The position numbers were made by a program, and so were the translations under genes. The notes beneath the pieces were generated by a model. The model had not been told where the DNA came from. It ran no database searches and worked only from the letters and a program-made list of their open reading frames with translations. Positions 43,749-52,757 of a DNA stretch of 64,000 nucleotides are shown in pieces. This DNA comes from Bacteroidales bacterium (lineage in GTDB: Bacteria > Bacteroidota > Bacteroidia > Bacteroidales > UBA7960). The DNA lies in the NCBI GenBank assembly GCA_031323845.1, contig JAVIYP010000004.1:14512-78511 (forward strand). Reading direction: 5' to 3'. Each line of letters starts with the position of its first letter. Within the stretch, counting starts at the first letter, position 1.

Positions 43749-46685
43749 TTACATCCCCAGGAGTTTAACCGACAGCATCAATTGGCCCTGTGGTTTCTGA
43801 CTCTCTTCAAAAAGCCAGGCGTAACCAACCGACCAGGTGGTTTTCATATACGAGAGCATCACTATCTCTATATCCGTCTGAAAACCCGCGTTGAAAACAT
43901 GTCGCGACACATCGCTGCGATCGGGGTCGGTGAACAGGTGTGTGCCAAATAATGAGGTGTAAATATAGGTAGGATATATCCAGGTGGCACCGACGTTACG
44001 TGTTCGTAAAGGACGAAGGTTCAGTTCGCTCATGGTTCTTATGTAGTTGTGCGCAGGCAATGCATCGATTTCAGCACCCGGGAAAGCAAGACTGCCCCTG
44101 TATTGGCGTGGTTCGCGCCAATCGACATAGTTGTTCCGGAAACCACCCAGGTAAAAGTATGACAGGGCCGATTCCCTGCTGCCAAAGGACTGACCGGCGC
44201 TGTTACGGATCCAGAAACTGGTGTTCCTGATGCCGGGCACCAGGAAGCCCACGTCCTGGTTCGAAACGATGGACGGGTAAAACGAGTCGGCCGCATAATA
44301 GGCAACGCCTGAGACGCGCCAGTTATAGCCCGTTTCGTGGTCGACGCCACCGAGGGTACGGCGCAGTTTCGACATGTTGAAGCCGGCCGTAGCCGCCTGG
44401 AACTGTCTCATGGGCGACTCGATGTTCTGATGCAGTGGCAACACTTCAAGGTCGCCGTAATGATACACTCCAAAGCTGTAGCCGTAACGGAAGGGCTCTC
44501 TCAGCGTATAATTTCTGTCGTAGGAAATACCAACGCTATAACCGGCACGGCTTCTCTTGGTCGGGCCGAAGAGGTCGTAAAAGTCCGTGCGGTTCCAGGT
44601 GGCGCTCAGCTTCCAGTTCCAGTAGCGCCAGTCGAGATGGGCGTGCACCTTCTGTTTGTCTTCAAAGGAGCTCCATGGCGAAGTGGCCAGGAAGAGGTCG
44701 ATCTGGCTCAGCGACAGGGGGTCACGCCAGAGCATACGGTAACCGACGGCAGCCGTGTTTTTATAGCCTGTCAAGTCGGGCCAGGCGTTGGCCAGGAACA
44801 TCTCCCGGACCGGGTGATAGGCAACCTCCCGCACTCCGGTGGTGTCCACATGCGGTGGCGGCGGCAGCGACCATTCAGTCACCTGCGGGTTGCGCTCCAG
44901 CACATCCATCCCAAGAAAATAAATGGCATTGGCCTCATAAAGGACCTCCAGCGGAATGCGTCCCGGTTTCATTCCATCACGATAGAAGCGCAGCACCAGC
45001 AACGAATCTTCGCTGTACTGATAGGGCATGAAAAAGCCCGTTTCCGTATTGGACAGCAGGTCAAACGATCCGTCTTCAATGCCCACGCGCCACACGTTGG
45101 AAACACCGGTGTAGTATGACGTGCCAATGAGATATTCATTGCAGGGGGCAAACTTGAATTGCGTCAGCGTATTGTCGTCGAGCTTAAGCAGGCTGCGGTA
45201 GCGCGTATTGCCCATCTCCAGTTCCCGTATTTCGAAAAGCACAAGTTCCTGCTCGCCTCCGACGCCTGAAAGCGTGGCGGCGAGGTATCTTCCGTCGGAT
45301 GAGATGTCGAGGTCGAAGATGGCCTGGCCAAAGGGTGTTTCCCAAAGCGGCTCGATGCTTTCGTAGGGCTCGGGAAATTTCACCAGCATAGAATGGCCGT
45401 TGTCGAGGCGCACGCCCCAGATGCTGCGGTCGGCGCGGTTAAACACCAGGTCGCCGGTACGCGTGAAAGGCAGGATGGTTTCCTTGCGGCCGCTTTCAAC
45501 GTCAATGGCCACCAGGCTGCGGTACTTGTAGTTGTGCTCGGTGATGTAAACGATGTTGCTGTCGGGGTCGTAGGCCAAATGTGTGGAGTAATACAGGGCG
45601 GGTGTGTCGAGGGTTGCCAGCTTGCGGATGTCGCCGGTGCGGGTGTCAATTTCGGCTATTTGTGAGATGATGCCGGGGTAGTTGATGGCCATGTACATCT
45701 TTTCGGTGTCGTGGTTGTAGCGAAAGGTGGAGGCGTTGCCCAGAGGGTGCGCGGTGATTGGCTCAAAGGCGGTAAGCGGGTATTCCTTCACCCTGTTGAT
45801 GTTTTCTTGTTGAAACTGACGTTCGAAAGCGATCCACTCGTCCCAGGCCTGCCCTACCGGCTTGTCATAGACCTGCCTGAACTGCCTGGCATAAAAGGCC
45901 TTGCTGTCTTCCGAGCGCAAGAAGAAGTCGTGCAGCTTGTCAACGCCGTATTCCCTGGCCAGGTATGTGGTGAAGCGCGAGCCGTAGAGGTAGGCGTTGG
46001 CGCCTACCTGGAAGTCGAGTGCCGTGCCTTCGGTTTCGAGGCCCACTACTGAGTGGATGGGGGCATTTTCGTGCACGAGGCTGCGGAAGTACATTTCGTC
46101 GTAGTATCCCATGGTGCGACCGAGGCCTCCTGACATCCAGGTTTCCATGAAAATGGCGATGCCTTCCTGGTACCAGCGGGGGGCATACCATCGCGGCACG
46201 GTGGTGTAGCTCCACAAGGCGGAGAGCGGGTAGGCCTCGTCGCGGCGCACCTTGCCGAAGAAGGCCCGCCGCCAGCGTTCATCGCGACGGTTGGGCTTGT
46301 CGGTCATCACCACGTGCGTCAGCTCGTGGTTGAACAGCCACTGGAAACGCTCACTTGCCGGCAGGATGCTGAAAGCAAAGTTATACGGTCCGATGCCGAT
46401 GAACACCTGGTTGAGCGGCATGGTAATGGCACCGCCCGTGCCATAATCCTGGAAGTCGTTGAGCATCACGTAGATCTTGCCGGGGTCGTAGTCCCAAAGC
46501 TCCTGGTGGAAGTCCATCGCATTAAAGAAGGTGCGCAGCACGTGCGGCGTCATATAGGTGTAGCGGCCGCCAAAATATACCAGCTGTACGCGTTCGGTGT
46601 CGATCTGGGTGATCAGTTGTGCCCTGGATTCATTCACTGACAGCAAGCTCAAGAGCAGGGCTGCGATGAATAGTCTGGTTTTCAT
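43749..46685 (-). CDS. Outer-membrane protein: gluzincin metallopeptidase + TolB-like beta-propeller + C-terminal beta-barrel (978 aa)
   Basis: Signal peptide; HELTH plus downstream WYQEGIA third ligand; propeller blades (FDLDISSDGRYLAA, FAPCNEYL); amphipathic C-terminal strands. Confidence 0.85.
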   Translation of the reverse strand: MKTRLFIAALLLSLLSVNESRAQLITQIDTERVQLVYFGGRYTYMTPHVLRTFFNAMDFHQELWDYDPGKIYVMLNDFQDYGTGGAITMPLNQVFIGIGPYNFAFSILPASERFQWLFNHELTHVVMTDKPNRRDERWRRAFFGKVRRDEAYPLSALWSYTTVPRWYAPRWYQEGIAIFMETWMSGGLGRTMGYYDEMYFRSLVHENAPIHSVVGLETEGTALDFQVGANAYLYGSRFTTYLAREYGVDKLHDFFLRSEDSKAFYARQFRQVYDKPVGQAWDEWIAFERQFQQENINRVKEYPLTAFEPITAHPLGNASTFRYNHDTEKMYMAINYPGIISQIAEIDTRTGDIRKLATLDTPALYYSTHLAYDPDSNIVYITEHNYKYRSLVAIDVESGRKETILPFTRTGDLVFNRADRSIWGVRLDNGHSMLVKFPEPYESIEPLWETPFGQAIFDLDISSDGRYLAATLSGVGGEQELVLFEIRELEMGNTRYRSLLKLDDNTLTQFKFAPCNEYLIGTSYYTGVSNVWRVGIEDGSFDLLSNTETGFFMPYQYSEDSLLVLRFYRDGMKPGRIPLEVLYEANAIYFLGMDVLERNPQVTEWSLPPPPHVDTTGVREVAYHPVREMFLANAWPDLTGYKNTAAVGYRMLWRDPLSLSQIDLFLATSPWSSFEDKQKVHAHLDWRYWNWKLSATWNRTDFYDLFGPTKRSRAGYSVGISYDRNYTLREPFRYGYSFGVYHYGDLEVLPLHQNIESPMRQFQAATAGFNMSKLRRTLGGVDHETGYNWRVSGVAYYAADSFYPSIVSNQDVGFLVPGIRNTSFWIRNSAGQSFGSRESALSYFYLGGFRNNYVDWREPRQYRGSLAFPGAEIDALPAHNYIRTMSELNLRPLRTRNVGATWIYPTYIYTSLFGTHLFTDPDRSDVSRHVFNAGFQTDIEIVMLSYMKTTWSVGYAWLFEESQKPQGQLMLSVKLLGM

Positions 46686-46734
46686 CTGTTTACAGTTTCA
46701 TTATGTTGTTTTTAAATGCATTGTGTTTATTTTG

Positions 46735-46845
46735 TTTCACAGAGTTTCACGGAGTTTGACACAGAGTTTCACAGAGTTTTGTCTCTGTGAGACTCTCCCG
46801 CATGGGCGGGACAGGTGTGAATGACTCAGTGTTACTCTGTGTAAC
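46735..46845. repeat. CACAGAG tandem/inverted repeat cluster in the leader of the OM peptidase gene
   Basis: tttcacagag x2, tttcacggag, tttgacacagag, then inverted ctctgtga and ctctgtgt; GC hairpin tcccgc-atgg-gcggga at 46796-46811. Confidence 0.8.
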
Positions 46846-46925
46846 TTTATTTGTTCTCGCAGATTATGTGATAATCAGCCCTCTGTGTTTCAAAATATTT
46901 AGCATGGGCGTTTCTGGTTGTAAGA

Positions 46926-46950
46926 TACGAAAAAAGTCATTCCCTGTTGC
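46926..46950 (-). promoter_or_regulatory. ECF-type promoter P4: GCAAC-N16-CGTA, overlapping a terminator hairpin
   Basis: Revcomp gcaac agggaatgactttttt cgta; same spacing as P1-P3. Confidence 0.65.
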
Positions 46951-46966
46951 CGGGGAATGACTTTTT
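46931..46966 (-). terminator. Intrinsic terminator after repeat protein B
   Basis: 14-bp perfect stem aaaaagtcattccc/gggaatgacttttt with U tract. Confidence 0.85.
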
Positions 46967-47023
46967 ATGCAGTAAATGTTCACAGAATTTGAGTGTCATT
47001 GCAGGTTTTGTTACGAGCATGCT

Positions 47024-48331
47024 TTAATCGAGAGTGAAGCCTGTGCGAAGCTGTTCATTATCAAATAAAACTGAGCCGCGCAGGAAGTCGCCGTCGCGTA
47101 TCATTTCGGAGCCGCGCAGCACTTCGTTCATCTGCAGCAAAGGAGCATCCAAAGACCGCAATTGTTCGCTGTCCAAAATGTTGAACCTGAGTTGTTCGTT
47201 GTCAAGGAATGCATCCCTGAGTTGTGAAGCATCGGTTATGCCCATGTCGCGCAATTGTTCTGCATCCCAAATAGGCAACAGGAAATTCAGCTGTTCTGTA
47301 TCAAACGCTGCAAGTTGTTCGAAGTCCAATGCACTCGCATCGTCGAGCCTGACACCATCAAGGAAACTCATCACATCATTGAGTTGTTCTGAGTCAAGTA
47401 CGGCTACGCGACGGAGATTTTCAGCGTCAAGGATGCCAAAATGACGTAACTGTTCGGCATCAAACCTCGTAAGGTCGCGCAGGTGTTCCGCATCCTGTAC
47501 CCTGAAGTTAACACGGAGTGCTTCAATGTCCATGATAACAAAATCCAGGAGTGCTTCATTCAGGAAGGCAATATCTCTGAGGTTTCCTGCGTCATTAAGT
47601 ATAATCATCCGGAGGGTTTCCGCATCCAGCTGGGCAAACTCACCCTCTTCATCCATTACGTCTTTGGCGAGCAGGTGTTCGAGCACCGGGCGGTTGTCGT
47701 TCACGATGTTGTGCATCAGCATGTTTGCGAAGAGCTGGTCGTGGGCAAGTGTTAGCTGTGGAAATTCTGCTTTTGGATGTGTTTTGAAGAAGCTTTCGAC
47801 GTCTGTCATGAAGTCGAACACCACGCCGTTGCGAACCTGTGTTTGTGCGATGGCGCTACCGGCGCTGTTGAGCACGGTGCGTATGGCAACGCGGTCCTTT
47901 TCGGAGAGGTCGGAGAGTACCCCGATGGCTTCGAGGATGCGCAGGCGGGCGTTGTCAAGGAACAAGGCGTACTCTTCCATACGGTTAAGGGTGCGGGCGC
48001 TGTTGGTGCGAAAGTCGTTGTGCTCTCTTCCTGCAGCAATTGCGAAGCGCAGGTCGTCGCCCATCTTGATGTTGGCGGCATACTCATAGGCGAGGTAGTT
48101 GCGGTATGCTTCGCGCATGTTTTGGTCGGCCAGCAGCTCGTTGCGCAGCTCAATGTCGGCTTCGGTAACGCGGACGTTGCGGTACTGGTCAACGCGGCCA
48201 ATGGTGCCGGCAGCCTCCCATATACTTAGTCCGGTAATGCGCGGATTTATCATGGCCAGCCCTATTGTCATGCCCACTACTAGACCTAATGCAAGGCCAA
48301 CAAGGAGAAATATGATCTTAGTCTTTTTCAT
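47024..48331 (-). CDS. Membrane-anchored protein B with ~16-18 hDxEQL C-terminal repeats
   Basis: Start MKKTKII (ATG 48331; the ORF-track 48472 start lies upstream of promoter P3); N-terminal TM; clearly paralogous to 48624-49658. Confidence 0.9.
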   Translation of the reverse strand: MKKTKIIFLLVGLALGLVVGMTIGLAMINPRITGLSIWEAAGTIGRVDQYRNVRVTEADIELRNELLADQNMREAYRNYLAYEYAANIKMGDDLRFAIAAGREHNDFRTNSARTLNRMEEYALFLDNARLRILEAIGVLSDLSEKDRVAIRTVLNSAGSAIAQTQVRNGVVFDFMTDVESFFKTHPKAEFPQLTLAHDQLFANMLMHNIVNDNRPVLEHLLAKDVMDEEGEFAQLDAETLRMIILNDAGNLRDIAFLNEALLDFVIMDIEALRVNFRVQDAEHLRDLTRFDAEQLRHFGILDAENLRRVAVLDSEQLNDVMSFLDGVRLDDASALDFEQLAAFDTEQLNFLLPIWDAEQLRDMGITDASQLRDAFLDNEQLRFNILDSEQLRSLDAPLLQMNEVLRGSEMIRDGDFLRGSVLFDNEQLRTGFTLD

Positions 48332-48388
48332 GGCTGTTCTTTTTTGAAAATAATTGATTGATTTCCAGCATTGGTTTGCTGATAAAAT

Positions 48389-48413
48389 TACTAAAAAAGT
48401 TCGTAAAAGTTGG
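48389..48413 (-). promoter_or_regulatory. ECF-type promoter P3: CCAAC-N16-AGTA
   Basis: Revcomp ccaac ttttacgaactttttt agta, 58 nt above the ATG. Confidence 0.75.
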
Positions 48414-48529
48414 TGTTTTTTGACAAAAAATTTCATTATCAATATGATAGCGGCAAATCTCTTAGAATTCAAAAACGGGTTCTTCGCTTCTATTCAGATA
48501 TAAAAGCCTCTATACCATCCAAAAAAACA

Positions 48530-48568
48530 ATAAACAGTCATTCCCCGCTCCCGGGAATGACTGTTTAT
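48530..48568 (-). terminator. Intrinsic terminator after repeat protein A
   Basis: 16-bp perfect stem ataaacagtcattccc/gggaatgactgtttat; duplicate of 46931-46966 including the adjacent 3' UTR. Confidence 0.85.
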
Positions 48569-48623
48569 GCAGTCAATCTTTACAGAATTTGATTGTCATT
48601 GCAGGTTTTTTGCAAGTGATGTG

Positions 48624-49658
48624 TTAGTAAGGATGTATTCCGCGAAGTTGTTCAGTATCAAAGAGAATTTGGCCACGCAGGAATTCGCTGTTGCGCATCA
48701 TTTCCGAGCCACGCAATACCTCATTCATGTTTAGCACACCCTCGAACGATTGCAACATTTCACTGTCAAGGATACCAAAATGCTGAAGCTGCTCTGCGTC
48801 AAAAAATTGCAAAAACTGGAGCATCCCTGCCTGGTCAAGAAAACCAATACTTAACAATGCTGGATTATCAAGCAGGGCCTGTAATGATGCCTCGCCTAGA
48901 CCGATAATGCTCTGAAGTTCTCCCATATCCAACAACAGCTTGTCCCTGAGTGTTTCCATGTCTAACTGCGCCAGTTCACCGTCTTCATCCATCAATTCTT
49001 TGGCAAGCAGATGTTCGAGCACCGGGCGGTTGTCGTTGACCATGGTACTCATGAGCACGTTGGCAAAAAGCTGATCGTGGGCTTTGGCCAGTTCGGGGTG
49101 TTGCGCGGGAGGGGTTGTGTCAAAGAACCGCTCCACACCCAGCATGAAGTCGAACACCACGCCATTGCGAAACTGGGTTTGCGCCAGGGCATTCCCGGCA
49201 TTGTTCAGCACGGTGCGGATGGCCACCCTGTCTTTGTCTGACAGGTCGGTTATCACAGTCAGGGCTTCCAGTATGCGAAGGCGCGCATTATCAAGAAACT
49301 CAGCGTAATCTTCCAGTCCATTAAGAGTGCGGCGGTTTTTCAGGCGAAAATCAGAGGCATCATAGCCCGCCAGAATCGCGAACCTGATGTCTTCGCCCAT
49401 TTTAATGTTGCTTGCATACTCGTAGGCCAGGTAGTTCCTGTATGCCTCGCGCATATGTTCATCTGACAGCAGTTCGTTGCGTAGTTCGATGTCGGATGCC
49501 GTTACACGTACATTGCGGTATTGGTCAATGCGGCCAATGGTGCCTGCAGCTTCCCTCAGGCTCATGCCCGGATTGGTTAAAGTAAGGCCCACCATAAGTC
49601 CTATGGCAAAACCGATAACAATACTGAATACAACGGCAAGAATTTTTGGAGTTTTCAT
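48624..49658 (-). CDS. Membrane-anchored protein A with ~8-9 hDxEQL C-terminal repeats
   Basis: N-terminal TM, EAAGTIGRIDQYRNVRVT, helical core near-identical to protein B. Confidence 0.9.
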   Translation of the reverse strand: MKTPKILAVVFSIVIGFAIGLMVGLTLTNPGMSLREAAGTIGRIDQYRNVRVTASDIELRNELLSDEHMREAYRNYLAYEYASNIKMGEDIRFAILAGYDASDFRLKNRRTLNGLEDYAEFLDNARLRILEALTVITDLSDKDRVAIRTVLNNAGNALAQTQFRNGVVFDFMLGVERFFDTTPPAQHPELAKAHDQLFANVLMSTMVNDNRPVLEHLLAKELMDEDGELAQLDMETLRDKLLLDMGELQSIIGLGEASLQALLDNPALLSIGFLDQAGMLQFLQFFDAEQLQHFGILDSEMLQSFEGVLNMNEVLRGSEMMRNSEFLRGQILFDTEQLRGIHPY

Positions 49659-49692
49659 AACGGTATGTTTTGATTGGTTGTTCTGGTGATAA

Positions 49693-49717
49693 TACTTACA
49701 AAGATCGCAAAAGTTGG
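49693..49717 (-). promoter_or_regulatory. ECF-type promoter P2: CCAAC-N16-AGTA
   Basis: Revcomp ccaac ttttgcgatctttgta agta, directly after the anti-sigma stop codon. Confidence 0.75.
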
Positions 49718-49718
49718 T

Positions 49719-50474
49719 TTATTGCACAAAAAATTGTCTGTTATAGCTCAATCGTCCTTCCTGTAGCACCTCGAGCACAAATGGGCCGGTGAATCCGGTG
49801 TTTTTGTTAAGTACGATCTGATAATGGGTTTTACCCTGGACACCAAAGCTTATCCGGTCTGCCCGGACTGTTTCGTGCATTTCACGGCCGCTGAGGTACC
49901 GCGCACGTAACAGACGGTATGCTTCCGTGTCGAAAGAAAGGGTCACTTCAATGGGGTCATCGGCGGCTGCCGTTAGCACGAGGATCACCATGTTGTCAAC
50001 CACCATGGGATTTACCTGGACCTGCCAGTCGTCTTGTGCGAACGCCATCTTCTGACCCGACCGGGCGGCCATGGTGCCGGCCATTTCACGTGAGTCGGTA
50101 AGCAGACGACCCGGCTGTACCATCAGCGTAACCACCGAGCCCAGCAATATACCAATGGCCAGCATGGCAGCATAACGCAGGAGCGCCCTGCCCTGAAAAC
50201 GGATCATCAGCGGCAGGCTTTTGCTGTCTGAGCCAAACACGCGTTCACGGTCCTGCCTGATGCGCTCCATTACTGACGGGCTCATATCGGGCACCGCAGG
50301 AGCACGGACAAAATTACGCAGGGATGCATCAAGCTCTTCCATGTCGCGTAAATAGCGCCTGACATCCTCCGATTCAGACAGGATACGGTGCAACGCATCC
50401 AGTTCCTCCCGGCTGATCGTGCCATCGAGCTTCCGGTTCACAAGGACCTCCAGTTCAGATGATATCTTTGACAT
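49719..50474 (-). CDS. Single-pass anti-sigma factor
   Basis: Follows the ECF sigma; N-terminal ASD-like helices (LDGTISREE..LHRIL), one TM, periplasmic beta domain; no HxxxCxxC zinc motif. Confidence 0.8.
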   Translation of the reverse strand: MSKISSELEVLVNRKLDGTISREELDALHRILSESEDVRRYLRDMEELDASLRNFVRAPAVPDMSPSVMERIRQDRERVFGSDSKSLPLMIRFQGRALLRYAAMLAIGILLGSVVTLMVQPGRLLTDSREMAGTMAARSGQKMAFAQDDWQVQVNPMVVDNMVILVLTAAADDPIEVTLSFDTEAYRLLRARYLSGREMHETVRADRISFGVQGKTHYQIVLNKNTGFTGPFVLEVLQEGRLSYNRQFFVQ

Positions 50475-50541
50475 AGTGTTACTGTGTTTAAACGTTTACT
50501 GCGCAACAGCCGGCTTCTTGCATCCTAGCCCTGTTTATCCT

Positions 50542-51102
50542 TCACGCCCTGCTGCTTTCAAAAAAACCCTGCCGTTCAAGTATGCCCTTTAAGAGTTTGC
50601 GTCCGTCATACAGCCTTGACTTCACTTTCTTTTCAGACAGGTCAAGCACTTCTGCAATTTCCGCATAGGAAAGTTCTTTAAAGTAATGCAGCACAATCAC
50701 TGCCCTGTAATTCTCCCCGAGTTCGCCCATTGCCCTTTGAAGCATCACGTCCCGCTCCTTCTCCATCACTGGCTTGTCAACACTGTCCGGGTTGCGACCG
50801 GCATCTTCAGGTAATCGTTCCAAACGCACAAAGCGCTGTGACTTTTTTATATGACTGATGGCCGTATTGATGGCGATGCGGTAGATCCAGCTGAAAAACT
50901 TACTCCGGTAGTTAAACGTTTCCAACTTTTCATAAGCCTTCACAAACACCTCCTGTGCCAGCTCCTCAGCCTCTTCGTGCTGCTGCAGCATCTGGTACAA
51001 CACATGGTACACTGCAGCCTGGTAATTACGCACCAGCAGCTCGTACTCCTGTATGTTTCCCGCCAGAATGCGCCGGATGACGCTATTTTCGTCGTTTTTC
51101 AT
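50542..51102 (-). CDS. ECF RNA polymerase sigma factor (SigW-like)
   Basis: Region 2 AEELAQEVFVKAY..FFSWIYRIAIN; region 4 LSYAEIAEVL..VKSRL; ATG 51102 preferred to TTG 51108. Confidence 0.95.
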   Translation of the reverse strand: MKNDENSVIRRILAGNIQEYELLVRNYQAAVYHVLYQMLQQHEEAEELAQEVFVKAYEKLETFNYRSKFFSWIYRIAINTAISHIKKSQRFVRLERLPEDAGRNPDSVDKPVMEKERDVMLQRAMGELGENYRAVIVLHYFKELSYAEIAEVLDLSEKKVKSRLYDGRKLLKGILERQGFFESSRA

Positions 51103-51108
51103 TAACAA

Positions 51109-51133
51109 TACGCCGTTGTGGTTAAAAAGTTGG
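51109..51133 (-). promoter_or_regulatory. ECF-type autoregulatory promoter P1: CCAAC-N16-CGTA, probably leaderless
   Basis: Revcomp ccaac tttttaaccacaacgg cgta ttgtta ATG. Confidence 0.8.
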
Positions 51134-51265: not shown

Positions 51266-52261
51266 TTAGCTGCTTAACTGGTTTAACTCCCAGAGTTCAC
51301 GATGGTTCATGCGCACCAGTGGCAGCAAGGCCATCTCGCCGGCTTTGCCTATCTGTTTGCGCAGCGCTTTTAGCTCCAGCAGTTTGTTTTTGATATCCGG
51401 CTCAACCAGCACCGGAAACCCGTTTTCCCTGAGCATCAGGTTTCGTTTTGCCTTGATGGACAACTCCAGGTACAGACTGAAAAAACAATACATGTCTACC
51501 AGCGTTTCCGGCTGGAAGTGCTCTTTCAGCGACGCGAGGTAGCGACCGGCCTTGGTGTCTCTGAATTGCCCCTGCCGGATCATGCGCAGCATGTCCACCT
51601 CGTTGCTGAACTCCACCTCAAGCCAGTTCTGGAGGTGGCGCGTGGTGTACATAAACACCACATAAAAAATAAGGGGTAGCAGAATGATGATCAGCAAGGT
51701 CATCAACAAGGGATCAAAAATAAAATGATTGAATGCTGAATGCAGCACCATGGCAACTAACAATCCTAATGCGCTGCCGGTTAAAAGGTTATTGTTGCGT
51801 TGCATCCCCTCAATGAGGATCATCGCAGCTATTGCCACAACACCACCATGCATGATGGCTGTGCCAAACCCCCTGACGATGGCCAGCAACACATTGAAAT
51901 CTGCCCCCAGATGAATATAATACCACAGGTTTTCAGCCAATGCAAAGCCTGTGCCTATGGCAAATCCGTAAATGGCCGCATCGATCATGAAACCGACCCG
52001 CCTGCGTGCCACCAACAGGAGAAGCAGCGAAGCCTTCAGCAACTCTTCAGAAACGGGGGCAATGTATCTTGTGAGCACATCAAAGCCTATGTTGTAAAAT
52101 CCAATTAAAAAGGAATTCACCAAATAAGCCAGTAAAGCTGAAACAACACCCCACGCCAAACACACAGCTAACAACCTTCTTGATACCAGTTTAAAGCTGT
52201 CGAGCAAAAAGAGACATCCCAAAAACAACAATACCGGGAAAAAGCCAAAGGCAATGATCAT
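51266..52261 (-). CDS. prsW: PrsW-family glutamic intramembrane protease
   Basis: Motifs PVSEELLK, GTGFALAEN, AIMHG, LHSAFN; multi-TM. Confidence 0.9.
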   Translation of the reverse strand: MIIAFGFFPVLLFLGCLFLLDSFKLVSRRLLAVCLAWGVVSALLAYLVNSFLIGFYNIGFDVLTRYIAPVSEELLKASLLLLLVARRRVGFMIDAAIYGFAIGTGFALAENLWYYIHLGADFNVLLAIVRGFGTAIMHGGVVAIAAMILIEGMQRNNNLLTGSALGLLVAMVLHSAFNHFIFDPLLMTLLIIILLPLIFYVVFMYTTRHLQNWLEVEFSNEVDMLRMIRQGQFRDTKAGRYLASLKEHFQPETLVDMYCFFSLYLELSIKAKRNLMLRENGFPVLVEPDIKNKLLELKALRKQIGKAGEMALLPLVRMNHRELWELNQLSS

Positions 52262-52757
52262 GCAGTGCGTCAGTTACATGTAACAAATCCGACAGGTAAA
52301 GAACCGGGGCAACCTGCTTTCATTAATGAAAGAGCCCCACGGTCTTCAAAACACGTTTACAGCACCGGTCAGGTTCGTGTATATATACACCAAATATACA
52401 ATAATTTTTTTTTATGCGAAAATACACACAGATGTAAAAGAATTCCAGGGAAGCGAGTTGAATCCTTCTGCTTTAAGTTCATTTGGCAAGTTCTTTGAAT
52501 AAAATGCAACAAGCATCAGTACTTCGCAACAAGACCTCTTAGATTCCGCAGCAGAAAACATCTTTCGTTTTCAGTGCGTACAGCAGGCATGTATGGTTAG
52601 ATTTTTTGCGCTATTATCCGCGGAAATAACAAACCCACAAGCACGCTGTATTAAAAAAAACACCATCAGTATAAAAACAAATATAAGCTGCAAAACCCCG
52701 GAAAATACAAGGTGGTTGTATTACAAAATTTTTCGTGTTTTCAGGTAAAAAAACATA

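Follow-up and report, generated by a model that had tools for sequence, protein, structure and literature searches.

An extracytoplasmic function (ECF) sigma factor gene on the minus strand of a Bacteroidales contig (lineage UBA7960, JAVIYP010000004.1; the 64,000-nucleotide (nt) stretch analysed is hereafter the window) is preceded by a promoter motif, P1, so close to its ATG that transcription, judging from related promoters, most likely begins at the final base of the start codon or just past it. Together with two further copies, P2 and P3, upstream of the neighbouring genes A and B, P1 is best explained as a cognate promoter of the adjacent sigma factor. In the explanation that we favour and hold to be probable, if not secure, the sigma factor would read a promoter of the form (A-rich)-CCAACTTTT-N12/13-RTAnT and place +1 10 nt after the T of RTA. 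P1 would serve the sigma and anti-sigma genes, P2 gene A and P3 gene B, and a fourth motif, P4, would be a chance match within a terminator. With the sigma ATG lying between the −10 element and the predicted +1, P1 transcripts would begin inside the start codon, at position 51100, and the mRNA encoding sigma would come by read-through from a sigma-A promoter upstream of the prsW-like gene that heads the cluster.

Promoter motifs P1–P3

P1 (51109–51133, minus strand) reads CCAAC-N16-CGTA, or more fully CCAACTTTTT-N12-CGTA; P2 (49693–49717) and P3 (48389–48413), on the same strand, both read CCAAC-N16-AGTA within CCAACTTTT-N12-AGTA. A preliminary description of the window had presented these strings and a fourth, P4 (GCAAC-N16-CGTA, 46926–46950, minus strand), as the promoters of a four-site ECF regulon. 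All four occur where it had placed them, and P1–P3 extend to CCAACTTTT, as it had noted. Its chance estimate of 1 match per ~33 kb per strand is arithmetically correct, but the loose pattern alone is not significant: CAAC-N16-MGTA matches the window 7 times where 2.99 matches are expected, and 5 of 100 shuffled sequences have 7 or more. Of the strict form, CCAACTTT-N12-15-GTA, the 2.89-Mb genome contains exactly three copies, both strands counted, and these are P1, P2 and P3. A scan of the whole genome, which the preliminary description had proposed, gives the same three sites when made with a two-block weight matrix built from 40 sites, all in other genomes: P3, P1 and P2 rank 1–3 at 30.7, 28.9 and 25.6 bits, and the next best has 20.6. 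P4, at −12.1 bits, falls below the more than 350 genomic sites that exceed 8 bits.

The architecture of P1–P3 is that of ECF promoters, with AAC followed by a T-tract, a spacer of 16–17 nt and a CGT/GTA −10 element, and P4 shares solely the bare CAAC and CGTA. In the 40 orthologous sites the spacer from CCAAC to RTA is 17 nt in 36 and 16 nt in 4, and the SigW/SigV-type geometry cited in the preliminary description, AAC-N16/17-CGT, holds for these sites as well as for P1–P3.

The motif is conserved where the sigma gene is. The form [CT]CAACT-N15/16-GTA precedes sigma in 32 loci, some within the same order and others in different classes of the phylum, where the sigma protein is 30–40% identical. 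It also stands upstream of A-type genes in 7 other genomes, with GTA in L001, L004, L102 and L122 and with ATA in its place in L104, L105 and L106; the conservation in orthologous cassettes on which the earlier proposal depended is thus borne out at both positions. Overall, about 40 related loci across the phylum have the motif before the sigma gene, often before gene A as well. The gene order prsW, sigma, anti-sigma, A(/B), 978-amino-acid (aa) gene recurs in many genomes of the order. Four clusters (L009, L013, L014 and L019) consist of prsW, an A-like gene and the 978-aa gene and have no sigma/anti-sigma pair, and in these the motif is absent upstream of A. Such clusters suggest that the PrsW-like protease is tied primarily to the A-type and 978-aa proteins. 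The geometry, the uniqueness in the genome, the conservation and the absence of the motif where sigma is missing together support the assignment of P1–P3 to the adjacent sigma factor.

P2 and P3 should not be counted as independent events. Their regions align over ~60 nt, a stretch that takes in positions of the spacer as well as the final codons of the anti-sigma gene, which indicates that P3 was copied along with gene A when B arose; on this alignment P3 is a paralogous duplicate of P2.

The cassette itself is patchily distributed, as no sigma ortholog was found at E ≤ 1e-30 in a same-genus genome or in three same-family genomes (G289, G032, G173 and G390). Within one genus, comparison of L010 with L105 shows a clean ~1.15-kb deletion in L010 that removes most of the sigma and anti-sigma genes and spares P1, the first ~30 sigma codons and, before A, the P2-type site. 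An in-frame stop interrupts the second sigma copy of one metagenome-assembled genome (L003:2084–2620), and an in-frame TGA the L106 sigma gene; these two may be pseudogenes or assembly errors. A metagenome scan with the sigma alignment returned distant ECF sigma factors only (≤41% identity) with GGAACTTT..GTCTA-type motifs, which were set aside as not orthologous.

Transcription start and the sigma start codon

To place the start of transcription, we counted steps from the T of RTA in the −10 element and compared 12 leadered sister promoters from 9 genomes. Step 3 is T and step 9 a pyrimidine in all 12, and step 10 is A in 11; at other offsets agreement does not exceed 5 of 12. For SigECF (SM6) of Flavobacterium psychrophilum, the published mapping has the start exactly 10 nt after the T of CGT in 6 of 6 promoters read from it (PMC9723704, Table S2). 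The pyrimidine/A footprint and the six mapped starts point to step 10 as the +1 of this promoter class. Applied to P2, the rule predicts a start on the A at 49684 and a leader of 26 nt to gene A, and applied to P3, a start on the A at 48380 and a leader of 49 nt to gene B; leaders of these lengths are typical for Bacteroidota. The preliminary description had expected starts 5–7 nt below MGTA, and the footprint together with the F. psychrophilum starts would instead put +1 nine nt below the A of GTA.

The same footprint bears on whether the motif is a promoter at all. It could instead serve as an operator for a DNA-binding regulator, or act at the RNA level in read-through transcripts, as its overlap with the translation start region of sigma might suggest. 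We regard this as very improbable: a fixed 16–17-nt spacing around an unconserved spacer, AAC and CGT half-sites, the A-rich tract and the pyrimidine/A pair at steps 9 and 10 are hallmarks of a promoter, the motif co-occurs with the sigma gene, and an Rfam search of 43–53 kb matched nothing meaningful.

At P1, step 10 is the G of the sigma ATG, at 51100. The distance of 6 nt from CGTA to the ATG at 51102, reported in the preliminary description, is confirmed, and this ATG is the true start of sigma, since M1 is invariant in the ortholog protein alignment. Across the 32 loci the ATG follows GTA after 3 nt (16 loci), 4 nt (5), 6 nt (9, including the window) or 7 nt (2). Its A accordingly falls at step 5, 6, 8 or 9, and never at step 10. 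The ATG stays beside the −10 element even where the sigma open reading frame (ORF) carries a 20-codon N-terminal extension (L105 and L106), and the start codon of L133, a GTG, even overlaps the −10 element. Start codons further in do not offer a ready substitute: the first internal methionine of the window sigma is residue 38, and among the P1 loci a second ATG near the predicted +1 was found in L108 only, at step 11. An alternative −10 register that would permit a start at the ATG in the gap-3 loci was ruled out, as the spacer is without conservation.

The preliminary description had read the short gap as a leaderless autoregulatory mRNA, with P1 starting exactly at the A of the ATG (51102) and sigma and anti-sigma under positive feedback. 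The persistence of the ATG within 3–7 nt of the −10 element in all 32 orthologs, extended ORFs included, could be taken in its favour, as could the two gap-7 loci (L004 and L102), in which A stands at step 9 after a T, a single nt away from the modal start. Very short leaders (~2–13 nt) are predicted for other ECF genes of the phylum, 3.7–5.5% of Bacteroidota mRNAs are leaderless according to the literature, and leaderless ECF promoters have been predicted in Actinobacteria (PMC7776599). The difficulty lies in the positions. A leaderless start needs +1 at step 8 in the window, which for the window clade is 2 nt upstream of the modal position, and at step 5 or 6 in 21 of the 32 orthologs, against a step-10 start from both the footprint (11 of 12) and the mapping (6 of 6). 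For those 21 loci, with gaps of 3–4 nt, a start at A is not plausible on these distances. The 8-nt gap of the canonical leaderless design occurs in no ortholog, only 4 of the 9 gap-6 loci have a pyrimidine immediately before the ATG (12 of 12 at the corresponding −1 of the sister promoters), and the overlapping GTG of L133 also speaks against it. With +1 predicted on the G and the ATG 3–4 nt from GTA in most orthologs, a leaderless sigma mRNA is not supported, and we judge strict leaderless initiation at P1, and the positive feedback that goes with it, unlikely.

A start within the ATG has a mapped precedent. F. psychrophilum yceA (transcription start site 49622) has ACAAC-N16-CGTT-tatagc-ATG with the start on the G of the annotated ATG, at a listed distance of −2 from the start codon (PMC9723704, Table S2), which shows that the arrangement is not unique to this sigma family.

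Source of the sigma mRNA

If P1 transcripts begin on the G, they may lack the sigma start codon, and sigma would have to be translated from another mRNA. A perfect match to the Bacteroidota sigma-A '-7 box', TATATTTG, lies at 52391–52398 (minus strand), 129 nt upstream of the prsW-like ATG, and neither a terminator nor a further sigma-A box was found between prsW and sigma. This box is the likely source of a basal prsW–sigma–anti-sigma read-through mRNA that would contain the sigma AUG. In most relatives sigma follows a prsW or STAS gene with the promoter alone in between; where it is first in its operon (L109, L112 and L134), a TAnnTTTG box stands 8–22 nt upstream of CCAAC. Such boxes, upstream of prsW or of P1, would make AUG-containing sigma transcripts available without P1. 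(A generic sigma-70 promoter scan was disregarded as irrelevant for Bacteroidota.)

A further step from this arrangement is offered tentatively, and we think it somewhat more doubtful than not. P1 transcripts would start within the sigma start codon or shortly past it (the G of the ATG in the window, codon 2–3 in most relatives), a placement conserved across Bacteroidota classes. The regulon would then not include sigma itself, and induction would raise anti-sigma, A and B and not sigma. P1-bound polymerase could in addition block transcription arriving from the upstream sigma-A promoter or by read-through, and the feedback would be negative only, by promoter geometry.

Several points weigh against starts inside the ATG and what would follow from them. 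The +1 position comes from footprints and from the mapped starts of another species. Start choice can wobble by 1–2 nt, and some P1 transcripts could begin at A, which lies at step 8 in the window clade and at step 9 in L004 and L102. In an AUG-less P1 transcript, ~560 nt of sigma ORF would go untranslated. Distant relatives have overlapping sigma and anti-sigma ORFs, which suggests coupled translation and a sigma ORF that is normally translated. Finally, sigma dependence is assigned solely by adjacency and co-occurrence, in a genome with other ECF sigma factors.

P4 and the terminators after A and B

The fourth string falls within a terminator. An intrinsic terminator follows gene A at 48530–48568 (minus strand; −27.8 kcal/mol, z −5.8) and its duplicate follows gene B at 46926–46966 (minus strand; −22.7 kcal/mol, z −5.2), the duplication covering the 3′ untranslated region as well. 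P4 is made up of the loop (CAAC), the 3′ arm and the U-tract of the post-B terminator plus the next four bases, and it has neither the CC, the T-tract nor the A-rich upstream flank. We therefore rejected P4 as the promoter of the 978-aa gene, on its position, its −12.1 bits and the lack of an ortholog site, the motif not having been found upstream of the orthologous genes in L004, L006 and L117–L122. Of the four-promoter regulon, the part that stands is P1–P3 upstream of sigma, A and B, and P4 would be a chance match.

Were all four sites functional, the 978-aa gene would be a direct regulon member with a promoter built into the B terminator. The exact 16-nt spacing of CAAC and CGTA exists only in the terminator copy that faces this gene, which is syntenic with the module everywhere, and no sigma-A box was found in the 245 nt upstream of it. 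We give this reading a slim chance, as P4 scores −12.1 bits while more than 350 sites exceed 8, its −35 element would fall in the hairpin loop, and the flanking features and ortholog sites are missing. The 245-nt region between the B terminator and the 978-aa gene contains 10-nt tandem repeats, GTTTCACAGA in 4.4 copies at 46734–46779 and a second array at 46824–46846, and neither a sigma-A box nor an ECF motif.

Extent of the regulon

With P1–P3 as the sole strong sites in the genome, the best-supported view is that the regulon is essentially this local cluster. One further credible site lies on another contig (C38:66342, minus strand; CCAACATTTCCGTTGTAAGGCCGTAAT, CCAAC-N16-CGTA, 17.7 bits, rank 9). 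It is intergenic, has T at step 3 and T/G at steps 9/10, and stands 153 nt upstream of the STAS gene that heads a STAS/NMT1-like/SpoIIE-PP2C/RsbW-like operon. Other high-scoring matrix sites (C5:54328, C115:36227, C98:10881, C32:6261 and others) were rejected as coding or without the invariant TA of the −10 element.

The genes of this operon form a partner-switching module of an NMT1-like binding protein, a dCache-HAMP-SpoIIE/PP2C phosphatase, an RsbW-like HATPase_c_2 protein and a STAS protein. In relatives the module lies directly upstream of prsW–sigma (L004:1125–4860; L117, L120 and L122), which makes a functional link of the C38 operon plausible; in the genome studied here it is outside the window, at C38:59567–66360, and partly duplicated. 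The text of the ECF reclassification paper mentions neither PrsW nor STAS. In L117, a good copy of the motif, CCAACTTTTTGACCATTCAAATGTACTTT (L117:10874), closely follows the 978-aa gene and precedes a 308-aa gene, and in this relative the regulon may extend further.

Gene cluster and its proteins

Six genes occupy the minus strand between 43.7 and 52.3 kb, in the order prsW-like protease, ECF sigma, anti-sigma, A, B and the 978-aa gene. The first (51266–52261, 331 aa) encodes a PrsW-family intramembrane protease (Pfam PF13367, E 1.4e-19, 70.8 bits against a cutoff of 23.5); its score is below the NCBIfam equivalog cutoff for PrsW, and it is syntenic with the sigma gene in more than 15 loci.

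The sigma gene (50542–51102, 186 aa, ATG at 51102) has the make-up of an ECF (group 4) sigma-70 factor: regions 2 and 4 are present as Sigma70_r2 and r4_2 domains, region 3 is absent, and the length is within the ~180–200 aa expected. Its domain scores are PF04542 E 2.5e-18, PF08281 E 3.8e-17 and TIGR02937 (sigma70-ECF) 108.5 bits against a cutoff of 42.9. The best NCBIfam match is SigW, at scores that miss the equivalog cutoffs (NF007223, 124 bits versus 209; TIGR02948, 113.7 versus 243), and by these scores the protein is SigW-like, not SigW.

Downstream is a putative single-pass membrane anti-sigma factor (49719–50474, 251 aa) with one hydrophobic span and a weak NCBIfam antisigma match (E 1.9e-6), a placement kept in relatives. 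Gene A (48624–49658, 344 aa) encodes an N-terminally anchored repeat protein without Pfam or NCBIfam match, whose homologs adjoin prsW and the 978-aa gene in other genomes. Gene B (47024–48331, 435 aa, ATG at 48331) is its paralog, at 60% identity. The last gene (43749–46685) encodes the 978-aa secreted protein, which is highly conserved and peptidase-like, with an HELTH motif; its relatives are occasionally annotated Peptidase_MA_2, WD40 or YncE-like.

The gene content is that of PrsW-type regulated intramembrane proteolysis, with a PrsW-family protease, an anti-sigma factor with one transmembrane (TM) helix and an M50 site-2 protease on contig C76, and cleavage of the anti-sigma factor is predicted from it. 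In their translations the anti-sigma factor, A and B share a juxtamembrane motif just outside the TM helix, [NQ]P-x(4-7)-E[AM]AGT[IM], encoded on the minus strand at 50130–50070, 49580–49530 and 48250–48190, respectively. This motif may be a common PrsW cleavage site.

Significance and comparison with known systems

ECF sigma factors are usually assumed to be self-amplifying through a cognate promoter upstream of their own gene, and a promoter set that looks autoregulated is ordinary. Here, in all the relatives examined, the cognate promoter directly adjoins the start codon, and its geometry seems to keep the AUG out of the transcript; we found no description in the literature of a cognate promoter with the sigma factor's own start codon inside the −10-to-+1 interval, conserved across a phylum. 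If starts past the A are confirmed, promoter placement alone could change the sign of feedback of a sigma/anti-sigma module, and not every ECF motif upstream of an ECF gene should be equated with positive autoregulation. If transcription starts at the A instead, the family initiates at an unusually short distance from its −10 element. For practical use, the analysis yields a well-defined promoter model (CCAACTTTT-N12/13-RTAnT, +1 at step 10) and predicts that this widespread PrsW-linked envelope module has a very small regulon.

As in the predicted leaderless ECF transcripts of Actinobacteria (Todor et al. 2020, PMC7776599), an ECF promoter lies directly before the start codon, but there the A of the ATG is the canonical +1 and the leader is ~0 nt, whereas here the ATG lies 1–5 nt upstream of the predicted +1. 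F. psychrophilum SM6 (SigECF), from the same phylum, has the same promoter architecture ([GA][TC]AA[CT]-N16-CGT[ATC]) and, at yceA, a mapped start on the G of an ATG that follows CGTT-N6 (PMC9723704); it differs as another sigma factor, with a type IX secretion system (T9SS) and Band-7 regulon and an autoregulated sigma gene with a 13-nt leader.

The closest likeness in gene content is to sigma-W/RsiW/PrsW of Bacillus subtilis: a SigW-best ECF sigma factor, a single-pass anti-sigma factor downstream, a PrsW-family protease and an M50 site-2 protease in the genome, with promoters that share the AAC-N16-CGTA geometry of the sigma-W consensus (TGAAAC-N16-CGTA) and a T-tract after AAC. Unlike in B. 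subtilis, the sigma and PrsW scores are below the equivalog cutoffs, prsW adjoins sigma and is syntenic with it, CCAAC takes the place of TGAAAC as the −35 element, the regulon seems confined to the local cluster as opposed to some 60 genes, the start codon would lie between −10 and +1, and relatives carry the STAS/RsbW/PP2C module.

In Streptomyces coelicolor, the ECF gene sigR is preceded by two promoters, p1 and p2, whose transcripts differ in the start codon that they contain, the sigma-dependent promoter adding an upstream start codon that gives a longer isoform. As with sigR, promoter choice here would change what is translated; unlike in sigR, the sigma-dependent promoter would remove the sole start codon.

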